From contig DATDQB010000023.1 in NCBI GenBank assembly GCA_035292445.1, forward strand, positions 25,533-89,532: DNA of 64,000 nucleotides. The letters run 5' to 3'. The notes under the pieces are model-generated. The model made no database searches. It saw only the letters and a program-made list of their open reading frames with translations, and was not told the origin of the DNA. This DNA comes from Candidatus Omnitrophota bacterium. GTDB lineage: Bacteria > Omnitrophota > Gorgyraeia > Zapsychrales > Zapsychraceae. Below, one piece after another: positions 11,311-64,000 of this stretch. Each line of letters begins with the position of its first letter. The first letter of the stretch is position 1. The position numbers and the translations under genes are program-made.

Positions 11311-11465
11311 TAAATCCCTGCTGTGCGCGTTATTGGCTCAATATAAAGAACCAATACTCTATTAAAGGGAGCCTACCTTCCGGCCCTGCCGGAGCGGCAC
11401 CCACTTGGTGACTAGGTTCACCTTATATGAAAGTCAGACGGCATAAGCGGGGATAAATTTCTTCC

Positions 11466-49027: not shown

Positions 49028-50488
49028 ATGAAATTCGCCATCCCGAAATTATGTTTAATGTTTGTTCTCACCGCACAGCTTTGTTTGGCGCAGGAAGTCC
49101 AAAAGAGCACCATCGATGATCAGAAAAATGTCGAGGTAACGGTTTATAACAGCGACATCGGCCTGGTCAAAGATACCCGGCGGATCAATCTGAGGCAGGG
49201 AGAAGGAGAGTTGCGGTTCATGGACGTGGCAGCGTATATCAATCCCGTAACGGTCCATATCAAGTCGCTCAATAATCCAAAATCATTCATGGTGCTGGAG
49301 CAAAATTACGAATACGATCTCATGGATGCCAATAAATTGCTGGATAAATACGTCGGGCAAAAGGTCAAGCTGTTGACGTACAATGAATATCAGGATAAAA
49401 AAGAAGAGATCGAGGCGGAGTTGCTAAGCAACAATAACGGGCAGATCTTTAAGATCGGCAACGAAATCCACTTGGGCCATCCCGGGTTTAAAATCCTGCC
49501 AAAAATCCCGGAAAATTTGATCGCTAAGCCAACACTTTCTTGGCAGTACGACAATTCAGGCGCGAAGGAACACGAAGTGGAGGTTTCTTATTTGACCAAT
49601 TACATTAACTGGAAAGCCGATTATATCGTCGTCCTGAACCAAGACGACACCAAGGCCGATCTGTCGGGATGGGTGAGCCTGGATAATCGAAGCGGGACAA
49701 TGTATAACAATGCCAAATTAAAACTTGTCGCCGGCGAGATTAATCGTGTTTATGATGCCGTGGGCGGTTTAAGAAGCGATATGGTCGCTAAATCAGCTAT
49801 GGCTATGGAATCCGCGCCCCAATTCGTTGAGCAGGGATTTTTCGAGTACCATATTTATGATCTCCAGCGGCGTACAACGATAAAAAACAATCAAACCAAG
49901 CAGATCAATTTATTGGAAGCCGCAGACATTAAAACTGAAAAAGAGCTTTTGGTCCATGGGCAGAATTATTATTTTATTGGCCAGTATGCCGGCCAAGAGC
50001 TCAAAGACCCGGTTGAAGTTTTTGTTAAATTTAAGAATGAGAAGGAGAATAATCTGGGCATGCCACTTCCGGCCGGTACCATGCGGCTTTATAAGAAAGA
50101 CCAGGAAGACAGCCTTCAGTTCATCGGGGAGGACCGCATCGAGCATACGCCCAAAGATGAAGAGGTTGAATTAAAGATCGGCAAGGCCTTTGATGTGGTT
50201 GAAGAGCGCAAGCAATCCGCCTTTCAAAGTGAATATCTAGGTGGTGATTATGTCTATGAATCGGAGTGGGAGATCACGTTACGAAACCACAAAGAAGAAG
50301 ACGTGGTGGTAGGCATTATCGAGCCCATGGCGTATGCCAACTGGCAGATATTAACGGCAACGCATCCTTATGAGAAAAAAGACGCTTTCACCGTCCAGTT
50401 TACGGTACCTGTTCCCAAAGACAAGGAAGTAAAGCTCATCTACCGTATAGAGGTCAGCAGCTCCAAATCCCGGTTATCAAAGCAATAA
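49028..50488 (+). CDS. Secreted DUF4139/DUF4140-like protein
   Basis: Signal peptide. Family assignment by resemblance from memory; low certainty. Confidence 0.4.
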   Translation: MKFAIPKLCLMFVLTAQLCLAQEVQKSTIDDQKNVEVTVYNSDIGLVKDTRRINLRQGEGELRFMDVAAYINPVTVHIKSLNNPKSFMVLEQNYEYDLMDANKLLDKYVGQKVKLLTYNEYQDKKEEIEAELLSNNNGQIFKIGNEIHLGHPGFKILPKIPENLIAKPTLSWQYDNSGAKEHEVEVSYLTNYINWKADYIVVLNQDDTKADLSGWVSLDNRSGTMYNNAKLKLVAGEINRVYDAVGGLRSDMVAKSAMAMESAPQFVEQGFFEYHIYDLQRRTTIKNNQTKQINLLEAADIKTEKELLVHGQNYYFIGQYAGQELKDPVEVFVKFKNEKENNLGMPLPAGTMRLYKKDQEDSLQFIGEDRIEHTPKDEEVELKIGKAFDVVEERKQSAFQSEYLGGDYVYESEWEITLRNHKEEDVVVGIIEPMAYANWQILTATHPYEKKDAFTVQFTVPVPKDKEVKLIYRIEVSSSKSRLSKQ

Positions 50489-58510: not shown

Positions 58511-59215
58511 ATGTCCAAATCGATAAAAGTCGCCGCCAGCATTCTCTGCGCCGATTTTACCAAACTCGGTGATGAGATTAAAAAATGCGAAGATGCCGGC
58601 GTTGATATGCTCCACATTGATGTGATGGACGGCAATTTCGTCCCCAATATCAGTATCGGTCAGGTGATCCTGGAGGCGATCCGCCCTATCACGAAACTTC
58701 CCATCGAAACGCACTTGATGATCGAGCATCCATGGTTTTATATCGATGAATTCTGCGATAAGGGGGCGGACATTGTTTCTATTCATGCCGAGTGCTATGG
58801 CCCAAGAAGAATGGGAAAAGAGCAACTGGAGTTTCCCAAAGAAGTTGACACAATCGATGCCCAGCGCGCCCGCAAAGACATTTTGCGCATCAAGAAAAAA
58901 GGGAAAAAAGCGTTCATGACGATCAATCCAGGCACACCCCCCTGCCTGGACGGCGTGCTCAAAGACTTGGATGGCGTTTTGGTGATGTCGGTCAATCCCG
59001 GTTTTGCCAAACAGGCCTTTAACCCCATCGCCCTATCCAAGATCGAACAATTAAGAAAATCTTTTAAAGGGGATATCGCCATCGATGGGGGCGTCAATGA
59101 TAAGACAGCCCCCGGTTGCGTCAAAGCCGGGGCCAATATCCTCGCCACCGCCAGCTATTTCTTCAATTCTCCTAACCCCAAAAGGGCTGTTCAATTTCTC
59201 AAAAGCCTCGCCTGA
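58511..59215 (+). CDS. rpe: Ribulose-phosphate 3-epimerase
   Basis: MSKSIKVAASILCADFTKLGDEI...HIDVMDGNFVPN signature. Confidence 0.85.
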   Translation: MSKSIKVAASILCADFTKLGDEIKKCEDAGVDMLHIDVMDGNFVPNISIGQVILEAIRPITKLPIETHLMIEHPWFYIDEFCDKGADIVSIHAECYGPRRMGKEQLEFPKEVDTIDAQRARKDILRIKKKGKKAFMTINPGTPPCLDGVLKDLDGVLVMSVNPGFAKQAFNPIALSKIEQLRKSFKGDIAIDGGVNDKTAPGCVKAGANILATASYFFNSPNPKRAVQFLKSLA

Positions 59216-59335
59216 TTTTTAGTTATAAATATTAATAAAAAATACTCTTTATTGCCCAAGAAATACCTACATGTTATATTTAAATAAAGTTGTCCCGGCT
59301 TGAGCAAGCCATTGGGACAGCATCCATTTTCCATC

Positions 59336-61366
59336 ATGAGAATACATCCAAAATTCACTTCCCGCAACGCCCAGGCCGCCTTGGAGTATATGCTTCTTTT
59401 AGCGGTTGTTGTGGCCATTGTGCTGGTCGGGCTACAAAATAAACTACCCCGGGCCAACCGTGCGACAGAACAGTATTTCAATGAAACGGCCAATATCATT
59501 ATGGGGCAAAACCCATCGAGCTCTTGTACAACGGGGGGCTGGACAGCTTGGACCGCCTGTAGCCTTCTTTGCGGATCCGGAGGAACGCAAACAAGAACGT
59601 GTACGGATACCTGCGGCAGCGGCTGCGCCCCGGATCAATACGGGTCTATCACTTCAAGGCCTTGTAATCAATTCCCTTGCCCGCCGGTTGATTGCCAGTG
59701 GGATCCGGCAGGATGGTCCGCCTGCCCTGCCTGCGTGAATCCGGGGCAACTCCCTACGCAGACAAGGCAATGTATATGTCCTCCTGCGCCTGTCGGGCAA
59801 AATTGTATAGGAGCGGCTTCACGAAACTGCAACTTTAATCTTTGTCCGACGCCGACGTGCGTGTGGGATCCTTGGTCGGCCTGTTCGCTTCCCTGCGGCG
59901 GCGGGGTTCAAACAAGGACATGTACTTGCCCGCCGGGTGTGCCTCCGGGGTCATACTGTCCCGCTGACGGCAACGGTCTGAGTTTAACCAGAGCGTGCAA
60001 TACACAAGGCTGTGATTGTTTGCCAACATCCGCTTCACCTACCTGTGGAGGACCCGTCACGATTCCGGCCAATAATCAGCCTGTTTCCAGCGGCTCGGTC
60101 GTTCAGGTTGCTTGTGGGACGGGGTGTCTGGGGTTTGTAACCTTTGCTTGCAATAGTGGCTTCTGGAATTTTGTCAGTGAGACGTGTACCGTTTCCTGCG
60201 GCAACAATGTCTGCGATGTGTCTGCGGGAGAGAATTCGACCAACTGTTGTCAGGATTGTCATGGGACACCGGCCTGCGGGGATACGGTTTGCTGCGCTGC
60301 CGGCGGGGAAGACCGGACAAACTGCTGTGCCGATTGTGCTAGCTGTGGAGATACTTTCTGTGACGCTCCCTGCGGGGAGAATTCGACGAATTGTTGCCAG
60401 GACTGCGGGGCGGGATGCGGCGATGGAATTTGTTGCTCGAGCGCAGAAACTAACACCAATTGTTGCGATTGCGTCAGCGTATTAACGACCGGCGACGGGC
60501 TCTGCTGCGCCAATACCGGCGAAGACGCGACCAATTCCTGCGATTGTGTCGCCGGCTTTAATTGCGGGGACGGTTTATGTTGCGCCGCAACAGGGGAAGA
60601 TATCAATACTTGTGTGGCCGATTGTTTGACTTGCCCAACTTTCGATGTCACGACGTGTGGAGGGATAGGGATGACAACCCTTCCGGCAGGCACCGCCAGC
60701 GGGACTTCCGTTAGTGTGCCCTGCGACGGCTGTTCGGGTTCTGTCACGGCTGATTGTGTTGCCGGGGGATGGACAAATATCGATGAGAGCAATTGTTGTT
60801 ACGATGGGCGCTGTTTCCAGCAGGCGGATTGTACTTCTTGTGAATCGCTTTCGTGCTGCGGGTGGTGCGATCCAAGTGATCCTAATAACCCCAGTCCAGG
60901 ATGCTGTAGTGAATTTAATTCGCCTTTAGGGACGTGCTCCGTGCCATGCATTAGCTGTTTTAGATGGGACGGAACCTGCTGTGACAGCATGAATGGGGGG
61001 AATGTCTCTGAATGTACGTTTTGCTCTGACAATGGGAATATGTATTGTACACCAACGGATTGTACGAATTTCTGTCCTAGTGCCCAAGCGGGATGTGGGG
61101 GAGGCAACGCTTGTTTATCTTTTGGGACATGTGTTGGCGGATTTTTTAATGGGGATGACTGTGTTGATCCAAATACGCCGCCGGGTTGTATTATGACACC
61201 TGGACAGGTATCCGATAGCCAATGTATGCTCAACGGCGGGACCTGCGGTGCTTGCTCTGGAGAGATTGGCCAGTTTTGTTCTGGCACGTCTTACTGTCCT
61301 TGTACGGGATGTTGTGATAGTGCTACATTTACATGCGAATTCTCCCCATCGTGTCTTCCACCCTAA
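59336..61366 (+). CDS. Large secreted Cys-rich protein: TadE/Flp-pseudopilin-like N-terminal segment, three thrombospondin type-1-like repeats, tandem CGDG-type Cys-rich repeats, C-terminal Cys-rich domain
   Basis: N-terminus RNA-QAALEYMLLLAVVVAIVLVG matches the Flp/TadE pattern (E at +5, Y at +6, hydrophobic helix). W-x-x-W-x-x-C-S-x-x-C-G-x-G motifs at three positions (WTAWTACSLLCGSGGTQTRTC and two more). Repeated CGDGxCCxxxGEDxTNCCxDC units. About 14% Cys. ATG at 59336 preferred over the TTG at 59300, which sits in a hairpin. Confidence 0.7.
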   Translation: MRIHPKFTSRNAQAALEYMLLLAVVVAIVLVGLQNKLPRANRATEQYFNETANIIMGQNPSSSCTTGGWTAWTACSLLCGSGGTQTRTCTDTCGSGCAPDQYGSITSRPCNQFPCPPVDCQWDPAGWSACPACVNPGQLPTQTRQCICPPAPVGQNCIGAASRNCNFNLCPTPTCVWDPWSACSLPCGGGVQTRTCTCPPGVPPGSYCPADGNGLSLTRACNTQGCDCLPTSASPTCGGPVTIPANNQPVSSGSVVQVACGTGCLGFVTFACNSGFWNFVSETCTVSCGNNVCDVSAGENSTNCCQDCHGTPACGDTVCCAAGGEDRTNCCADCASCGDTFCDAPCGENSTNCCQDCGAGCGDGICCSSAETNTNCCDCVSVLTTGDGLCCANTGEDATNSCDCVAGFNCGDGLCCAATGEDINTCVADCLTCPTFDVTTCGGIGMTTLPAGTASGTSVSVPCDGCSGSVTADCVAGGWTNIDESNCCYDGRCFQQADCTSCESLSCCGWCDPSDPNNPSPGCCSEFNSPLGTCSVPCISCFRWDGTCCDSMNGGNVSECTFCSDNGNMYCTPTDCTNFCPSAQAGCGGGNACLSFGTCVGGFFNGDDCVDPNTPPGCIMTPGQVSDSQCMLNGGTCGACSGEIGQFCSGTSYCPCTGCCDSATFTCEFSPSCLPP

Positions 61367-61423: not shown

Positions 61424-64000
61424 TTAGGGGGGATCGCACCCATGGCATGTAATATTATCACCCAGGTCCACACAGCCGGAACCATGGCTTGAGCAATAGG
61501 TACCACAACCCCATGCTTGCGCGCCGGAGCAGTTCCAGGTAAAAGTACAGCGGCAAGGATCCGATGGGTTTGATGCCATACACCCCATTCCATACGGATC
61601 TGAGCAATTACAGACGCTAGCGCAGTTGGGCTCGGTTGGCGTGCAGCCCATACAATAAGGGGAAACACCAGGGGTTCCATCAGCGCAATCCGCGTCCTTG
61701 CCGCCGCAGTAGGTATCGCAACCCCATTTCTGGGCACCTGCGCAACTCCAACTCATACTGCACCAACAATTGGGATTGCTGTTTCCTGACATGCACATTC
61801 CCATAGAAAATGGGTCGCTGCAATCACAAAGGGTATCGTTACAGTCGACTTCTGGCGGTGGTGGTGGCGGCGGCGAACACGTATTCGAGTTAAATATCCA
61901 AGAACCATTATTACACGTATAACTGCATCCTCCGGAGTACCCAATGACACAAGAACCGCTTGAACCGTTGTGAGCAGTGGCAGCAAGATAGCAATCGTTT
62001 ATGATTGTTTCTGGACAAGGATTTCCACCGCTGCACACACCGCCGCTGCAGGTCCCGCTGGCGCAGAAAGTCCCGGTTGTCCCGCAGCTGTTGCCGCAGC
62101 TGTCATTGATAGGTGTTCCGCAAGAAATGGTTGAAGGATTAGCGCATTGGCTTGAGTTAAAGCCTGTTCCGAAAGTGCCGCAGAAGGTGCCACAGATATC
62201 ATATATGGGATCCCCGCAAGCCACCGATGAAGCGCTTGGACAAGAAGGCGAACCGCAATCTTGTGGACAGTCGCATTGGTCTTCTGGAGGATCGCAATTA
62301 CCGTCAGGACAGACGGGACCGATTTGTTGACACCAACACTGGCCTGTTCCATTATCTTCCGGGCAAGGATTACCGCCAGCACTCTGGCAAAGCATACCCC
62401 CGCAACACGGCCCTGGAGTAACATTACCGCAGGTGTTTCCGAGAGAGAGACAAGGACAACTACTACACTCACCCGTATAAGGAGGGCAGGGGCCGCTGCA
62501 TGAAGGGCATACGCCGGAGCCCGTGCAATTAGTTGTACAATCTGATGAGCGTGTGTATATCACCCCACAGTTGAGCCATCCACAGGCCGTGCAAGTGAAT
62601 TCATCATCGACACAAGTGTTATTCCAGGACCAAGAGCCGTTATCGCAGGTGGCTGAACAGTTGCCTATATCCGAACAAACACCCGAAACATTTTGACCAT
62701 CACTGTAAGTGCCGGGAGGTATGGAGCATTGTGTTTCGCCACCTCCGTCGCTTACTCCCCCTGAGCAGGTCGCTGAGCACGTATTCGAGCTGGGTGTTGT
62801 CCAGCTGCCATTATCGCATGTATAACTACAGGAACCACTATATCCACTGGCGCAGCTGCCGCTTGTGTTACCGGATGCAGTGCCGCCTGTTAAGTCGCAA
62901 TTACTGATGGTTGTTGCGCCACAAGGGTCCTTAGTTTTTGAGCACATCCCACTATTTGAGCCGCCACAACTTCCATCACAGCGCCATCTCCATTCAGCCG
63001 TAGTATCCGCATAGGCTCCGTCATTGGCCGTTCCAGCCGAGCATCCATTCTGAACGGCATTGTTGCAAACTCCGTTAAGAGGCGAGCACCCCGTGCAGTA
63101 CCAGTAATCGTCATCATTACACGCTACGGCGCAGGGGCCTTGGCATCCCCCTGAAGCGGCGCAAACTGCCGCGTCCGGAGTTATGCCCTTGGTGCCGCTG
63201 GCGCAGACACGTGAGCTACAGGTGATGCCATTACACCAATTAGACCCACACGTCGCCGAACAAGATGCGTTGGAATAAGAGCCGGATAAGCTCCCATTAT
63301 TACATGTCCTGGTCTGACTGCTACAGGAGCCGCTGCAAGTTTCAGAGGCATTCAGATACGCCGTGACACTGTTACCATGAGCTATGGTTCCCCCCCAAGG
63401 TAGATTGCAGGGAGCTGAACACGTATTCGAGCTGGGTGTTGTCCAGCTGCCATTATCGCATGTATAACTACAGGATCCAGTATAGCCACTGGCGCAGCCG
63501 CCGCTTGTGCTACCGGATGCAGTAGCTAATACGTCGCAATTACCATTAACAGTTGTTGCGCTACAAGGATTCTTAGTTTTTGAACACACGCCGCTGGGTG
63601 AACAGCCAAGCCCTTGAGGAGAATCATCACAATGCCATCTCCATTCCGCAGACGTATCACCATAAACTGAATTATTAGGCGTACCTTTGGTACAGCCGTC
63701 TACCACGCTGTTATCGCATTGACCATTGTCACACACCCCACAACTTGCCTCTGCGCCCGGACAAGTGGGAGAGCCCGTACAATGGGAAACGCTACAATAT
63801 GTTTTTCCATCATCACTACAAGTTGTACAATCTGTTGCTGGGCCACCGTCGCAGCATATTAGATTGCCGCCTGACGGCGCATCCCATCCAAGGCAGCTCA
63901 AACAGGTACAGGTGCCTCCGGAAGCGGTGTAGCCGTTGATACATGTGACAGCACAATGATCGCCTCCTCCTGGACAAGAAGAAACAGCTGTTGCCGTTCT
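61424..64000 (-). CDS. Very large Cys/Gly/Ser/Thr-rich secreted modular protein (5' end beyond the window), paralogous C-terminal domain to the + strand neighbour
   Basis: Open frame continues upstream of the TTG at 63901 (CINGYTASGGTCTC...), so the gene is 5'-truncated by the window. Recurrent module C-x-x-GY(S/T)G(S/G)CSYTC(D/N)NGSW..(S/N)NTC three times, AEWRW(H/R)CD motif twice, a PPPPPPP linker. C-terminal C.C..W.C.GAQ.WGC.TYC units shared with the + strand protein; both proteins end in PP. Confidence 0.7.
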   Translation of the reverse strand, partial: RTATAVSSCPGGGDHCAVTCINGYTASGGTCTCLSCLGWDAPSGGNLICCDGGPATDCTTCSDDGKTYCSVSHCTGSPTCPGAEASCGVCDNGQCDNSVVDGCTKGTPNNSVYGDTSAEWRWHCDDSPQGLGCSPSGVCSKTKNPCSATTVNGNCDVLATASGSTSGGCASGYTGSCSYTCDNGSWTTPSSNTCSAPCNLPWGGTIAHGNSVTAYLNASETCSGSCSSQTRTCNNGSLSGSYSNASCSATCGSNWCNGITCSSRVCASGTKGITPDAAVCAASGGCQGPCAVACNDDDYWYCTGCSPLNGVCNNAVQNGCSAGTANDGAYADTTAEWRWRCDGSCGGSNSGMCSKTKDPCGATTISNCDLTGGTASGNTSGSCASGYSGSCSYTCDNGSWTTPSSNTCSATCSGGVSDGGGETQCSIPPGTYSDGQNVSGVCSDIGNCSATCDNGSWSWNNTCVDDEFTCTACGWLNCGVIYTRSSDCTTNCTGSGVCPSCSGPCPPYTGECSSCPCLSLGNTCGNVTPGPCCGGMLCQSAGGNPCPEDNGTGQCWCQQIGPVCPDGNCDPPEDQCDCPQDCGSPSCPSASSVACGDPIYDICGTFCGTFGTGFNSSQCANPSTISCGTPINDSCGNSCGTTGTFCASGTCSGGVCSGGNPCPETIINDCYLAATAHNGSSGSCVIGYSGGCSYTCNNGSWIFNSNTCSPPPPPPPEVDCNDTLCDCSDPFSMGMCMSGNSNPNCWCSMSWSCAGAQKWGCDTYCGGKDADCADGTPGVSPYCMGCTPTEPNCASVCNCSDPYGMGCMASNPSDPCRCTFTWNCSGAQAWGCGTYCSSHGSGCVDLGDNITCHGCDPP
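62779..63645 (-). repeat. Two about 220-bp near-identical direct repeat units (62779-62996 and 63421-63645, period about 642 bp) inside the Cys-rich gene; recent internal module duplication
   Basis: Long identical strings are visible in both copies (for example ACGTATTCGAGCTGGGTGTTGTCCAGCTGCCATTATCGCATGTATAACTACAGGA). A third, diverged copy of the encoded module lies near 61900-61980. Confidence 0.7.

Follow-up and report, generated by a model that had tools for sequence, protein, structure and literature searches.

The window analysed here, a 64,000-nt stretch of contig DATDQB010000023.1 from a Candidatus Omnitrophota bacterium, carries directly downstream of rpe a gene for a protein of 676 amino acids (aa), whose N-terminal part resembles the small pilins of the Flp/Epd type and whose remaining 616 residues (61-676) constitute, judging from their sequence, a disulfide-rich cargo of an extracytoplasmic type. 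The earlier note on this DNA, made from the letters alone, had reported an open reading frame (ORF) at 59300-61366; in the ORF list of the window it is uninterrupted on the + strand, and the ENA gene calls contain an identical 676-aa protein on five metagenome contigs from five samples, which is therefore no assembly or frameshift artefact. The start codon is likely ATG 59336, preferred because the ENA gene calls use it and the resulting 12-aa leader matches the leaders of orthologues. From the N-terminus onwards the protein comprises this leader, a hydrophobic helix, the tail of the pilin module, three thrombospondin type 1 (TSP1) repeats, a beta module, six CGD repeats, a second beta module, and a Cys-dense end (Table 1), with an NPSSS linker joining the pilin module (residues 1-60) to the TSP_1 and further modules. 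It contains 102 cysteines (15%), every one of them past residue 60. A weak promoter-like site lies ahead of the gene at 59252-59280; no convincing terminator was found for it, nor was any tandem repeat found at the DNA level under the CGD array. In Pfam and NCBIfam scans of the whole protein the sole match was a sub-threshold one to PF04021.

Table 1. The pilin-like gene, the modules of its product (aa, residues of the 676-aa protein) and the adjoining genes; positions are those of the window
Feature	Position	Strand	Remarks
rpe (ribulose-phosphate 3-epimerase)	58511..59215	+	PF00834; conserved upstream neighbour defining the syntenic slot
Whole coding sequence	59336..61366	+	676 aa plus stop; modular pilin-like protein of the Flp/Epd type
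Basic leader MRIHPKFTSRNA (aa 1-12)	59336..59371	+	putative prepilin-peptidase cut after Ala12; -1 and +1 residues as in the family
Mature N-terminus QAALEY and hydrophobic alpha-1 helix (aa 13-33)	59372..59434	+	Gln+1, Glu+5, Tyr+6
Second half of pilin module (aa 34-60)	59435..59515	+	..LPR....A.E.YFNETANIIMG.NP; conserved; short members stop here
TSP1-type repeat 1 (aa 64-115)	59525..59680	+	PF00090 15.1 bits, E 0.027, full-length; PF19028 E 0.007
TSP1-like repeat 2, degenerate (aa 120-170)	59693..59845	+	motif W..GWSAC..C....TQTRQC.CPPAP by sequence
TSP1 repeat 3 (aa 175-226)	59858..60013	+	PF00090 32.7 bits (threshold 21.6); PF19030 24.5 bits (threshold 23.8)
Beta module, copy 1 (aa 228-284)	60017..60187	+	C..CG..V.IP.....G....V.C..GC.G.V...C..G.W......C
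Six tandem CGD-type Cys-rich repeats, ~20 aa each (aa 288-430)	60197..60625	+	CGDxxC....GE...NCC.DC; regex map
Beta module, copy 2 (aa 433-487)	60632..60796	+	Cys/Gly/Trp pattern of copy 1; weak BLASTP match in the 1492-aa neighbour
Cys-dense C-terminal region (aa 488-676, 189 aa)	60797..61363	+	no family matches
3' part of convergent 1492-aa Cys-rich secreted protein	61424..64000	-	runs past the window end; module types shared with the cargo

The N-terminus quoted in the earlier note, MRIHPKFTSRNA-QAALEYMLLLAVVVAIVLVG, is present in the sequence, and its interpretation as a prepilin-like segment of the Flp class fused to TSP1 and Cys-rich repeats is upheld by the family homology and by the conserved gene slot described below. 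The leader MRIHPKFTSRNA, 12 aa long, has a charge of +3 and a small residue, Ala, at -1, and the predicted mature N-terminus is QAALEYMLLLAVVVAIVLVGL. Residues Q13, A15, E17, and Y18 are invariant in all 24 aligned family members, and the residues at -1 and +1 are Ala, Gly or Ser followed by Gln in 227 of the 228 members scored (Ala-Gln in 141, Gly-Gln in 83, and Ser-Gln in 3). The PF04021 model (Class_IIIsignal), with a threshold of 23.7 bits, gives 18.8 bits for the whole protein and 23.0-23.3 bits for the N-terminus alone; scanned one by one, 23 of the 24 family members match it (best E 1e-6) and 11 match Flp_Fap, PF04964 (best E 2e-4), and the relatives P0133 (24.9 bits) and P0167 (23.9 bits) exceed the PF04021 threshold. 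A helix spans residues 10-55 in the AlphaFold2 (AF2) model of residues 1-290. The N-terminal motif occurs once in the window (six-frame regex scan), and the hidden Markov model (HMM) of the family found no second member among the ORFs of at least 40 aa there.

No significant pilin match was obtained in a profile search of the PDB: the top scores were spurious ones to LptE (E 0.24), and the only pilins in the list, Caulobacter PilA (E 0.56) and Flp (E 5.1), aligned weakly and non-significantly, with mature residue 1 placed at Gln. The models for prepilin-type N-methylation and cleavage (IPR012902 type) gave no match in NCBIfam or Pfam. The assignment to an Flp/TadE class made in the earlier note stands in its first half, as an N-terminus of the Flp/Epd class III (PF04021) type, whereas the TadE half has no HMM support; a TadE pseudopilin is rejected, there being no TadE match at E<=10 and one among the 24 relatives at E 0.07 (0.073). 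The mature protein would have 664 aa, against the ~45-65 aa typical of Flp/Epd pilins, a range into which the module of residues 13-60 fits.

The family to which this module belongs was collected by an exhaustive phmmer search with residues 1-70 against 1.84 billion representatives (cut-off E<=1e-3). It returned 159 proteins, mostly of 56-120 aa, aligned over query residues ~8-63 with E down to 1e-17; P0038 and P0067 in this list are repeat-driven false positives. The short relatives align end to end over residues 8-63, and the query module therefore corresponds to their full length, so that at the sequence level residues 1-60 represent a complete small pilin module, which in most relatives is the whole protein. 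A profile search gave 325 proteins. Where the sources name them, they are called 'Flp pilus assembly pilin Flp' (JGI) or 'class III signal peptide-containing protein [Candidatus Omnitrophica]' (NCBI). The earlier note rightly held that such segments normally sit on small proteins, namely pilins or minor pilins of 50-150 aa, as the family consists mostly of Omnitrophota proteins of 56-100 aa: among the 241 members fetched, 182 have at most 100 aa, 30 have 101-150, 12 have 151-300, and 17 have more than 300 aa. The extensions contain 10-20% Cys, and the cargo length ranges from 0 to ~1370 aa. The first module after the pilin module is a CGD knot in 58 members, a TSP1 repeat (TSR)-like one (GGW...C.CP.P..GG..C) in 22, and another one in 29. 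About a quarter of the family (58/241) thus has a CGD repeat first, e.g. P0032, P0039, P0040, and P0042, and the members of ~100 aa inspected carry a single CGD knot, which recalls the C-terminal loop held by a disulfide in type IVa (T4a) pilins.

Two long relatives are colinear with the 676-aa protein. P0002 has the pilin module, three TSRs, beta module, and CGD repeats and is 43% identical over residues 1-325, and P0031, with the same domain order, is 36% identical over residues 1-432. P0027 and P0105 share the pilin module and the TSRs, scoring 51.9 and 40.9 bits with TSP_1 as whole proteins, which is above the threshold. The orthologue from an Omnitrophota metagenome-assembled genome (MAG) in GTDB (JABDFL010000029; L010:3376-4944, + strand) retains the pilin module, after which come a TSR-like, degenerate stretch and a C-terminus of ~350 aa that is not Cys-rich, is unrelated to the cargo of the 676-aa protein, and has no Pfam match. 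A word-match search for homologues with the 63-aa N-terminus alone returned nothing, giving one candidate word match, and when an alignment of two N-termini was used to look for related loci, GTDB genomes yielded none and JGI metagenomes only the already known P0002 contig, because the back-translated patterns (NAQAALEY) were too specific.

The position of the gene is conserved as well. Eight relatives were looked up, six short ones (P0197, P0033, P0062, P0262, P0236, and P0206) and two long ones (P0127, 1431 aa, and P0105, 665 aa), and in all eight rpe lies directly before the pilin gene. The six contigs reaching far enough upstream have the order carA-carB-purF-pyrG-(0-1 gene)-rpe-[pilin], and the same upstream order is found in the window, in the P0002 loci, and in L010. 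Given the conserved slot and the N-terminal homology, the 676-aa gene is a positional orthologue of the small pilin; as far as gene order and sequence go, it occupies the conserved chromosomal slot of that pilin, having gained a cargo. Downstream, in seven of the eight relatives, it is followed by a convergent GGDEF response regulator, a GAF/HisKA kinase, and a FIST protein, the contig of the eighth, P0105, stopping within the next gene. This GGDEF/HisKA/FIST cluster lies at ~10.2-14 kb in L089, L091, L092, L094, L095, and L096 and is also present at the P0127 locus; a link of the pilin to c-di-GMP is possible. In the window genome the cluster is not found in the first 10 kb downstream of the gene; in its place, over at least 10 kb, are genes for two giant, secreted, Cys-rich proteins and for one with Peptidase_S74.

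The cargo begins with three W..W..C...C...TQTR.C segments, in agreement with the three TSP1 repeats announced in the earlier note, the third of which is above the PF00090 threshold (in isolation it covers positions 2-49 of the 49 in the model), the first weaker, and the second degenerate and, taken alone, without any Pfam match. The three-repeat region matches the TSRs of thrombospondin-1 in the PDB (7yyk/1lsl) with E 1.6e-10. TSP_1 is not reported in the whole-protein scan, presumably because of the composition correction at 15% Cys. This correction would hide real domains, and precomputed annotations accordingly give '-' for the protein; an isolated TSP1 repeat scores 11 bits over the threshold despite the empty whole-protein scan. 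Structure prediction, proposed as a check in the earlier note, points the same way: the AF2 model of residues 1-290 has a mean pLDDT of 74, with 70-90 in the TSR region and ~70-85 in repeat 1, and its top 40 PDB matches in Foldseek are all TSR proteins, including properdin (1.2e-5) and thrombospondin-1 (2e-4), with a probability of 1.0. The alignment with properdin extends over 175-208 columns and covers all three repeats, which are thus predicted to adopt the TSR fold. The repeats share the W..W..C..CG.G.QTR.C pattern with those of eukaryotic TSR proteins (thrombospondin-1, properdin, TRAP/CSP, semaphorin-5A) and differ from them in being bacterial, in having 8 Cys rather than 6, and in that one of them is degenerate. 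TSP1 domains are adhesive modules (PMC3417536).

The repeats are followed by the first beta module, for which AF2 gives three strands at a pLDDT of ~75-80 and which has no Pfam or NCBIfam match; it recurs in P0127 (E 2e-4) and in both giant neighbours. A Sushi/CCP domain (PF00084), which the beta modules resemble by eye only (..Y.C..G.W....C), was not matched at E<=10 by either copy. Between the two copies lie six CGD repeats, at least five having been claimed in the earlier note, where they were likened to Cys-rich repeats of myxobacteria. The likeness itself holds, as HMMER matches them with E 2.8e-33 to 1e-9 to unnamed CGDGxCC..GE..C.CP.DC arrays of Myxococcota and Deltaproteobacteria proteins, but neither TIGR02232, the family suggested for them, nor DUF4215 (PF13948) gave a match, even at E<=10, with the whole protein or the isolated 144-aa repeat region. 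The Cys-dense C-terminal domain noticed earlier is present with its full 189 aa. The AF2 model of residues 228-676 is unusable (mean pLDDT 45, ~30-45 in the C-terminal region).

The two giant genes, convergent to the pilin gene and paralogous to each other, encode proteins of 1492 aa (L001:12089-16567) and 1500 aa (L001:16679-21181), both on the - strand and both with canonical Sec signals (MVDQRFKKS..LAFA before Q in the former). They share with the pilin cargo the CGD repeats, the beta module, and a C-terminal segment, and canonical TSP1 is found in the 1500-aa protein. One stretch of the 1492-aa protein resembles residues 523-588 of the 676-aa protein at 41% identity (E 5e-7); this similarity and the shared module types suggest, at the level of sequence, that modules have been shuffled or exchanged between the pilin gene and its giant neighbours within the locus. 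The next gene (L001:21184-22031, - strand) codes for a protein with a Peptidase_S74 domain, an intramolecular chaperone and autoprotease of phage tailspikes and endosialidases. S74 is among the modules reported on modular pilins (PMC8179133).

The remainder of the window is a bacterial core genome, with 6S RNA, tRNAs, parAB, ndk, thrS, infC, pheST, nqrA-F, genes for GS-III and GOGAT, carAB, purF, pyrG, and rpe, and its CTP synthase (pyrG) is 70-77% identical to those of Candidatus Omnitrophota MAGs. The 6S RNA (Rfam RF00013, 62.4 bits) is encoded at 11312-11457 (+), between pheT and the next gene, and a DUF4139 protein at 49028-50488 (+), between the genes for glycerol kinase and glycerol-3-phosphate dehydrogenase and carA. 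Just upstream of the window are dnaA, dnaN, and gyrBA; its start is ~3-4 kb from these and from yidC-jag-parAB, which places oriC next to the window. Nearly all window genes are on the + strand and the cumulative GC skew climbs throughout. The pilin gene is a leading-strand gene at a distance of ~60 kb from oriC.

The signature of the pilin module is mixed. With the Flp/Fap pilins of Tad (type IVc) pili (PF04964; Caulobacter PilA, 8u1k, and P. aeruginosa Flp, 8u2b) it shares the short basic leader, Glu at +5, Tyr at +6, and the hydrophobic helix, and, at ~48 aa after cleavage, it is likewise very small; unlike them, the 676-aa protein has Gln at +1, Ala at -1 (mostly Ala in the family), no tad neighbours, and a cargo of 616 aa, against none. 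With the archaeal Epd/DUF361 pilins (PF04021; M. maripaludis EpdA-E, MMP1685), which are processed by EppA, it has in common Gln at +1, Glu at +5, the short leader, small size, and PF04021 as the best and almost sole Pfam match, and it differs from them in its bacterial host and in Tyr at +6, a feature of Flp that is missing from the M. maripaludis pilins. A Gln at +1, a Glu at +5, a leader of 5-13 aa, and a length of 54-63 aa after cleavage have been described for the EppA-processed DUF361 pilins of Methanococcus and the Flp class (PMC3875500). As Tad systems are thought to have descended from Epd-like archaeal pili (PMC6668835), the mixed Epd/Flp signature is unsurprising. The TadE, TadF, and TadG pseudopilins (PF07811, PF13400), which work with Tad pili, are larger and have an Flp-like N-terminus; the 676-aa protein lacks a TadE-like globular domain.

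In its overall design the protein resembles the modular type IV pilins (S. sanguinis PilB with a vWA module and PilC with a lectin module; CofB/TcpB), in which a short linker connects a pilin carrier with adhesion modules that are not pilus-specific (PMC8179133). The modular pilins surveyed there are of the T4a, type IVb (T4b), and Com types, with the IPR012902 motif and a globular pilin domain, whereas the carrier here is a minimal one of the Flp/Epd type, which would escape the IPR012902-based survey of Raynaud et al. 2021. Unlike theirs, the cargo here consists of TSP1 repeats and Cys knots, and at a single orthologous locus its length can be anything between 0 and ~1370 aa. The best reading of the Omnitrophota pilin is that it extends the modular-pilin idea to an Flp/Epd-type carrier. 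A different pilin class is represented by P0021 from a metagenome, a type IV pilin of the classical kind, 438 aa long, with the N-terminus NAFTLIEIL, an annotated prepilin-type cleavage/methylation domain, three canonical TSP1 repeats, and no CGD repeats, which is 41% identical to the TSR region of the 676-aa protein; its existence indicates that TSRs were grafted onto pilins at least twice. The earlier note knew of no name under which such an architecture had been described, and literature searches likewise found no description of the pilin family, of its linkage to rpe, or of Flp-type pilins with a TSP1 cargo.

What the protein does is approached here from its sequence and that of its relatives. 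The interpretation we favour, to which we give about even odds, is that it is a type IVc-like modular pilin of the Flp/Epd type, displaying adhesion modules on a filament. The leader and the hydrophobic helix would insert the protein in the inner membrane with the N-terminus inside and the C-terminus outside, and in the periplasm the cargo would form up to 51 disulfides as it folds oxidatively, with which the even number of cysteines is consistent. A prepilin peptidase of the A24 family (TadV/CpaA- or PilD/EppA-like) would cleave after Ala12 and expose Gln13, and a type IV filament machine, Tad-like or of another kind, would pull the helix with its Glu5 from the membrane and polymerise it. Because the cargo amounts to ~65 kDa, the subunit would most likely be placed at the tip of the filament or be sparse in it, the rod-like TSP1 stalk and the Cys-rich modules being presented so that another cell or a surface can be bound. 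Modular pilins are probably located at the tip, since bulky modules clash in the filament body (PMC8179133). We infer that the 676-aa protein is processed and assembled into filaments and that its cargo acts as an adhesin; the gain of cargo most likely lets the pilus or the cell surface display such an adhesin.

Several points weigh against this interpretation. A cargo of ~65 kDa with ~51 disulfides is large for passage through a Tad secretin, and one gene per locus is hard to square with a tip-only role if its product is the only or the major pilin. The PF04021 score of the protein stays just below 23.7, and Flp_Fap is not matched at all. An Ala at -1 is atypical, Gly being usual for bacterial prepilin peptidases. 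Finally, no gene for a prepilin peptidase or for the ATPase, platform, or secretin of a type IV filament was found in the 64-kb window or its 10-kb flanks, which hold housekeeping genes only, and none of the eight relatives encodes a prepilin peptidase or pilus machinery less than 10 kb away from the gene. In its favour, Tad and T4a pili are common in Omnitrophota, a phylum for which host-dependent lifestyles have been inferred (PMC10066038).

An alternative which we consider unlikely, though the most credible of those weighed, is that the class III signal serves only export or anchoring, so that a helix-tethered or pseudopilus-like stub, cleaved or uncleaved, would display the cargo without any long pilus, by analogy with the archaeal substrate-binding proteins that have class III signal peptides. 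Pilus genes are unlinked to the locus in 11 of 11 genomes, the cargo is very large for a 48-aa carrier, and a tolerance of 0 to ~1370 aa of cargo is easier to reconcile with a membrane anchor than with a filament subunit. Against such a tether speaks the conservation of the entire pilin module, including its YFN..IMG..P half, which short members need only for packing in a filament, as does the existence of bare relatives of 56-70 aa, which have no cargo to anchor.

It is considerably less probable that the protein is a major subunit, each copy of which would bear its cargo on the flexible NPSSS linker to form an adhesive fibre resembling a bottle brush. The gene does stand alone in the slot that holds a bare pilin in relatives, the CGD knot placed directly on the pilin in 58 of 241 members suggests an exposed C-terminus that tolerates additions in every subunit, and the first cargo modules are thin, rod-like TSRs; sterics oppose it, with ~65 kDa per subunit to be accommodated and passed through the outer-membrane secretin, as do the clashes of S. 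sanguinis PilB when modelled in the filament body (PMC8179133), and, since the Tad loci of Omnitrophota have Flp genes of their own (bioRxiv 10.64898/2026.06.07.730766), there may be a different major pilin.

Just as improbable is that the N-terminus looks like a pilin by chance and is a normal Sec signal peptide or signal anchor, on a secreted or periplasmic Cys-rich protein like its neighbours: the PF04021 match is sub-threshold, whole-protein scans are otherwise empty, neighbours with paralogous modules are Sec-secreted, and no pilus machinery is nearby, yet Sec signals are not conserved in sequence, whereas here Q, A, E, and Y are invariant in a homology that spans 55-60 residues, no AXA-type site follows the helix (position -3 is Asn in ..LPRANRA before T), the ~16-20 uncharged residues seen in hydropathy analysis (AAL-E-YMLLLAVVVAIVLVGL) exceed the usual Sec h-region in length, and the canonical Sec signals of the giants are different.

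Starting again from a modular pilin that displays its cargo on a filament, a broader proposal can be made, with clearly less confidence and only tentatively: the rpe-linked pilin locus, whose products range from a bare pilin of 56 aa to a protein of 1431 aa, may be an evolvable display scaffold, to which Cys-rich adhesion modules (TSP1, CGD knots, beta modules) have been added repeatedly at the exposed C-terminus and exchanged with the giant adhesin genes, the cargo setting the specificity for a host or surface in the filaments of these ultra-small, host-dependent bacteria and perhaps decorating every subunit.

To our knowledge, pilins of the Flp/Epd type are the smallest known and are regarded as bare helices, and catalogues of modular pilins cover the classical N-methylated class only. 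At this locus, conserved across an uncultured phylum, such a minimal pilin type carries a cargo of up to ~1400 aa. To the TSP1 repeats, which are most familiar as adhesion modules of animals and apicomplexans, the finding also contributes a bacterial lineage with good support. Most interesting is that the members of the family differ in length at a conserved locus, and this in a host-dependent phylum believed to live attached to other microbes or by preying on them. If the cargo is indeed displayed on a filament, the protein would be a natural case of domain grafting onto a type IVc pilin and would provide a testable candidate for a determinant of host attachment in Omnitrophota.

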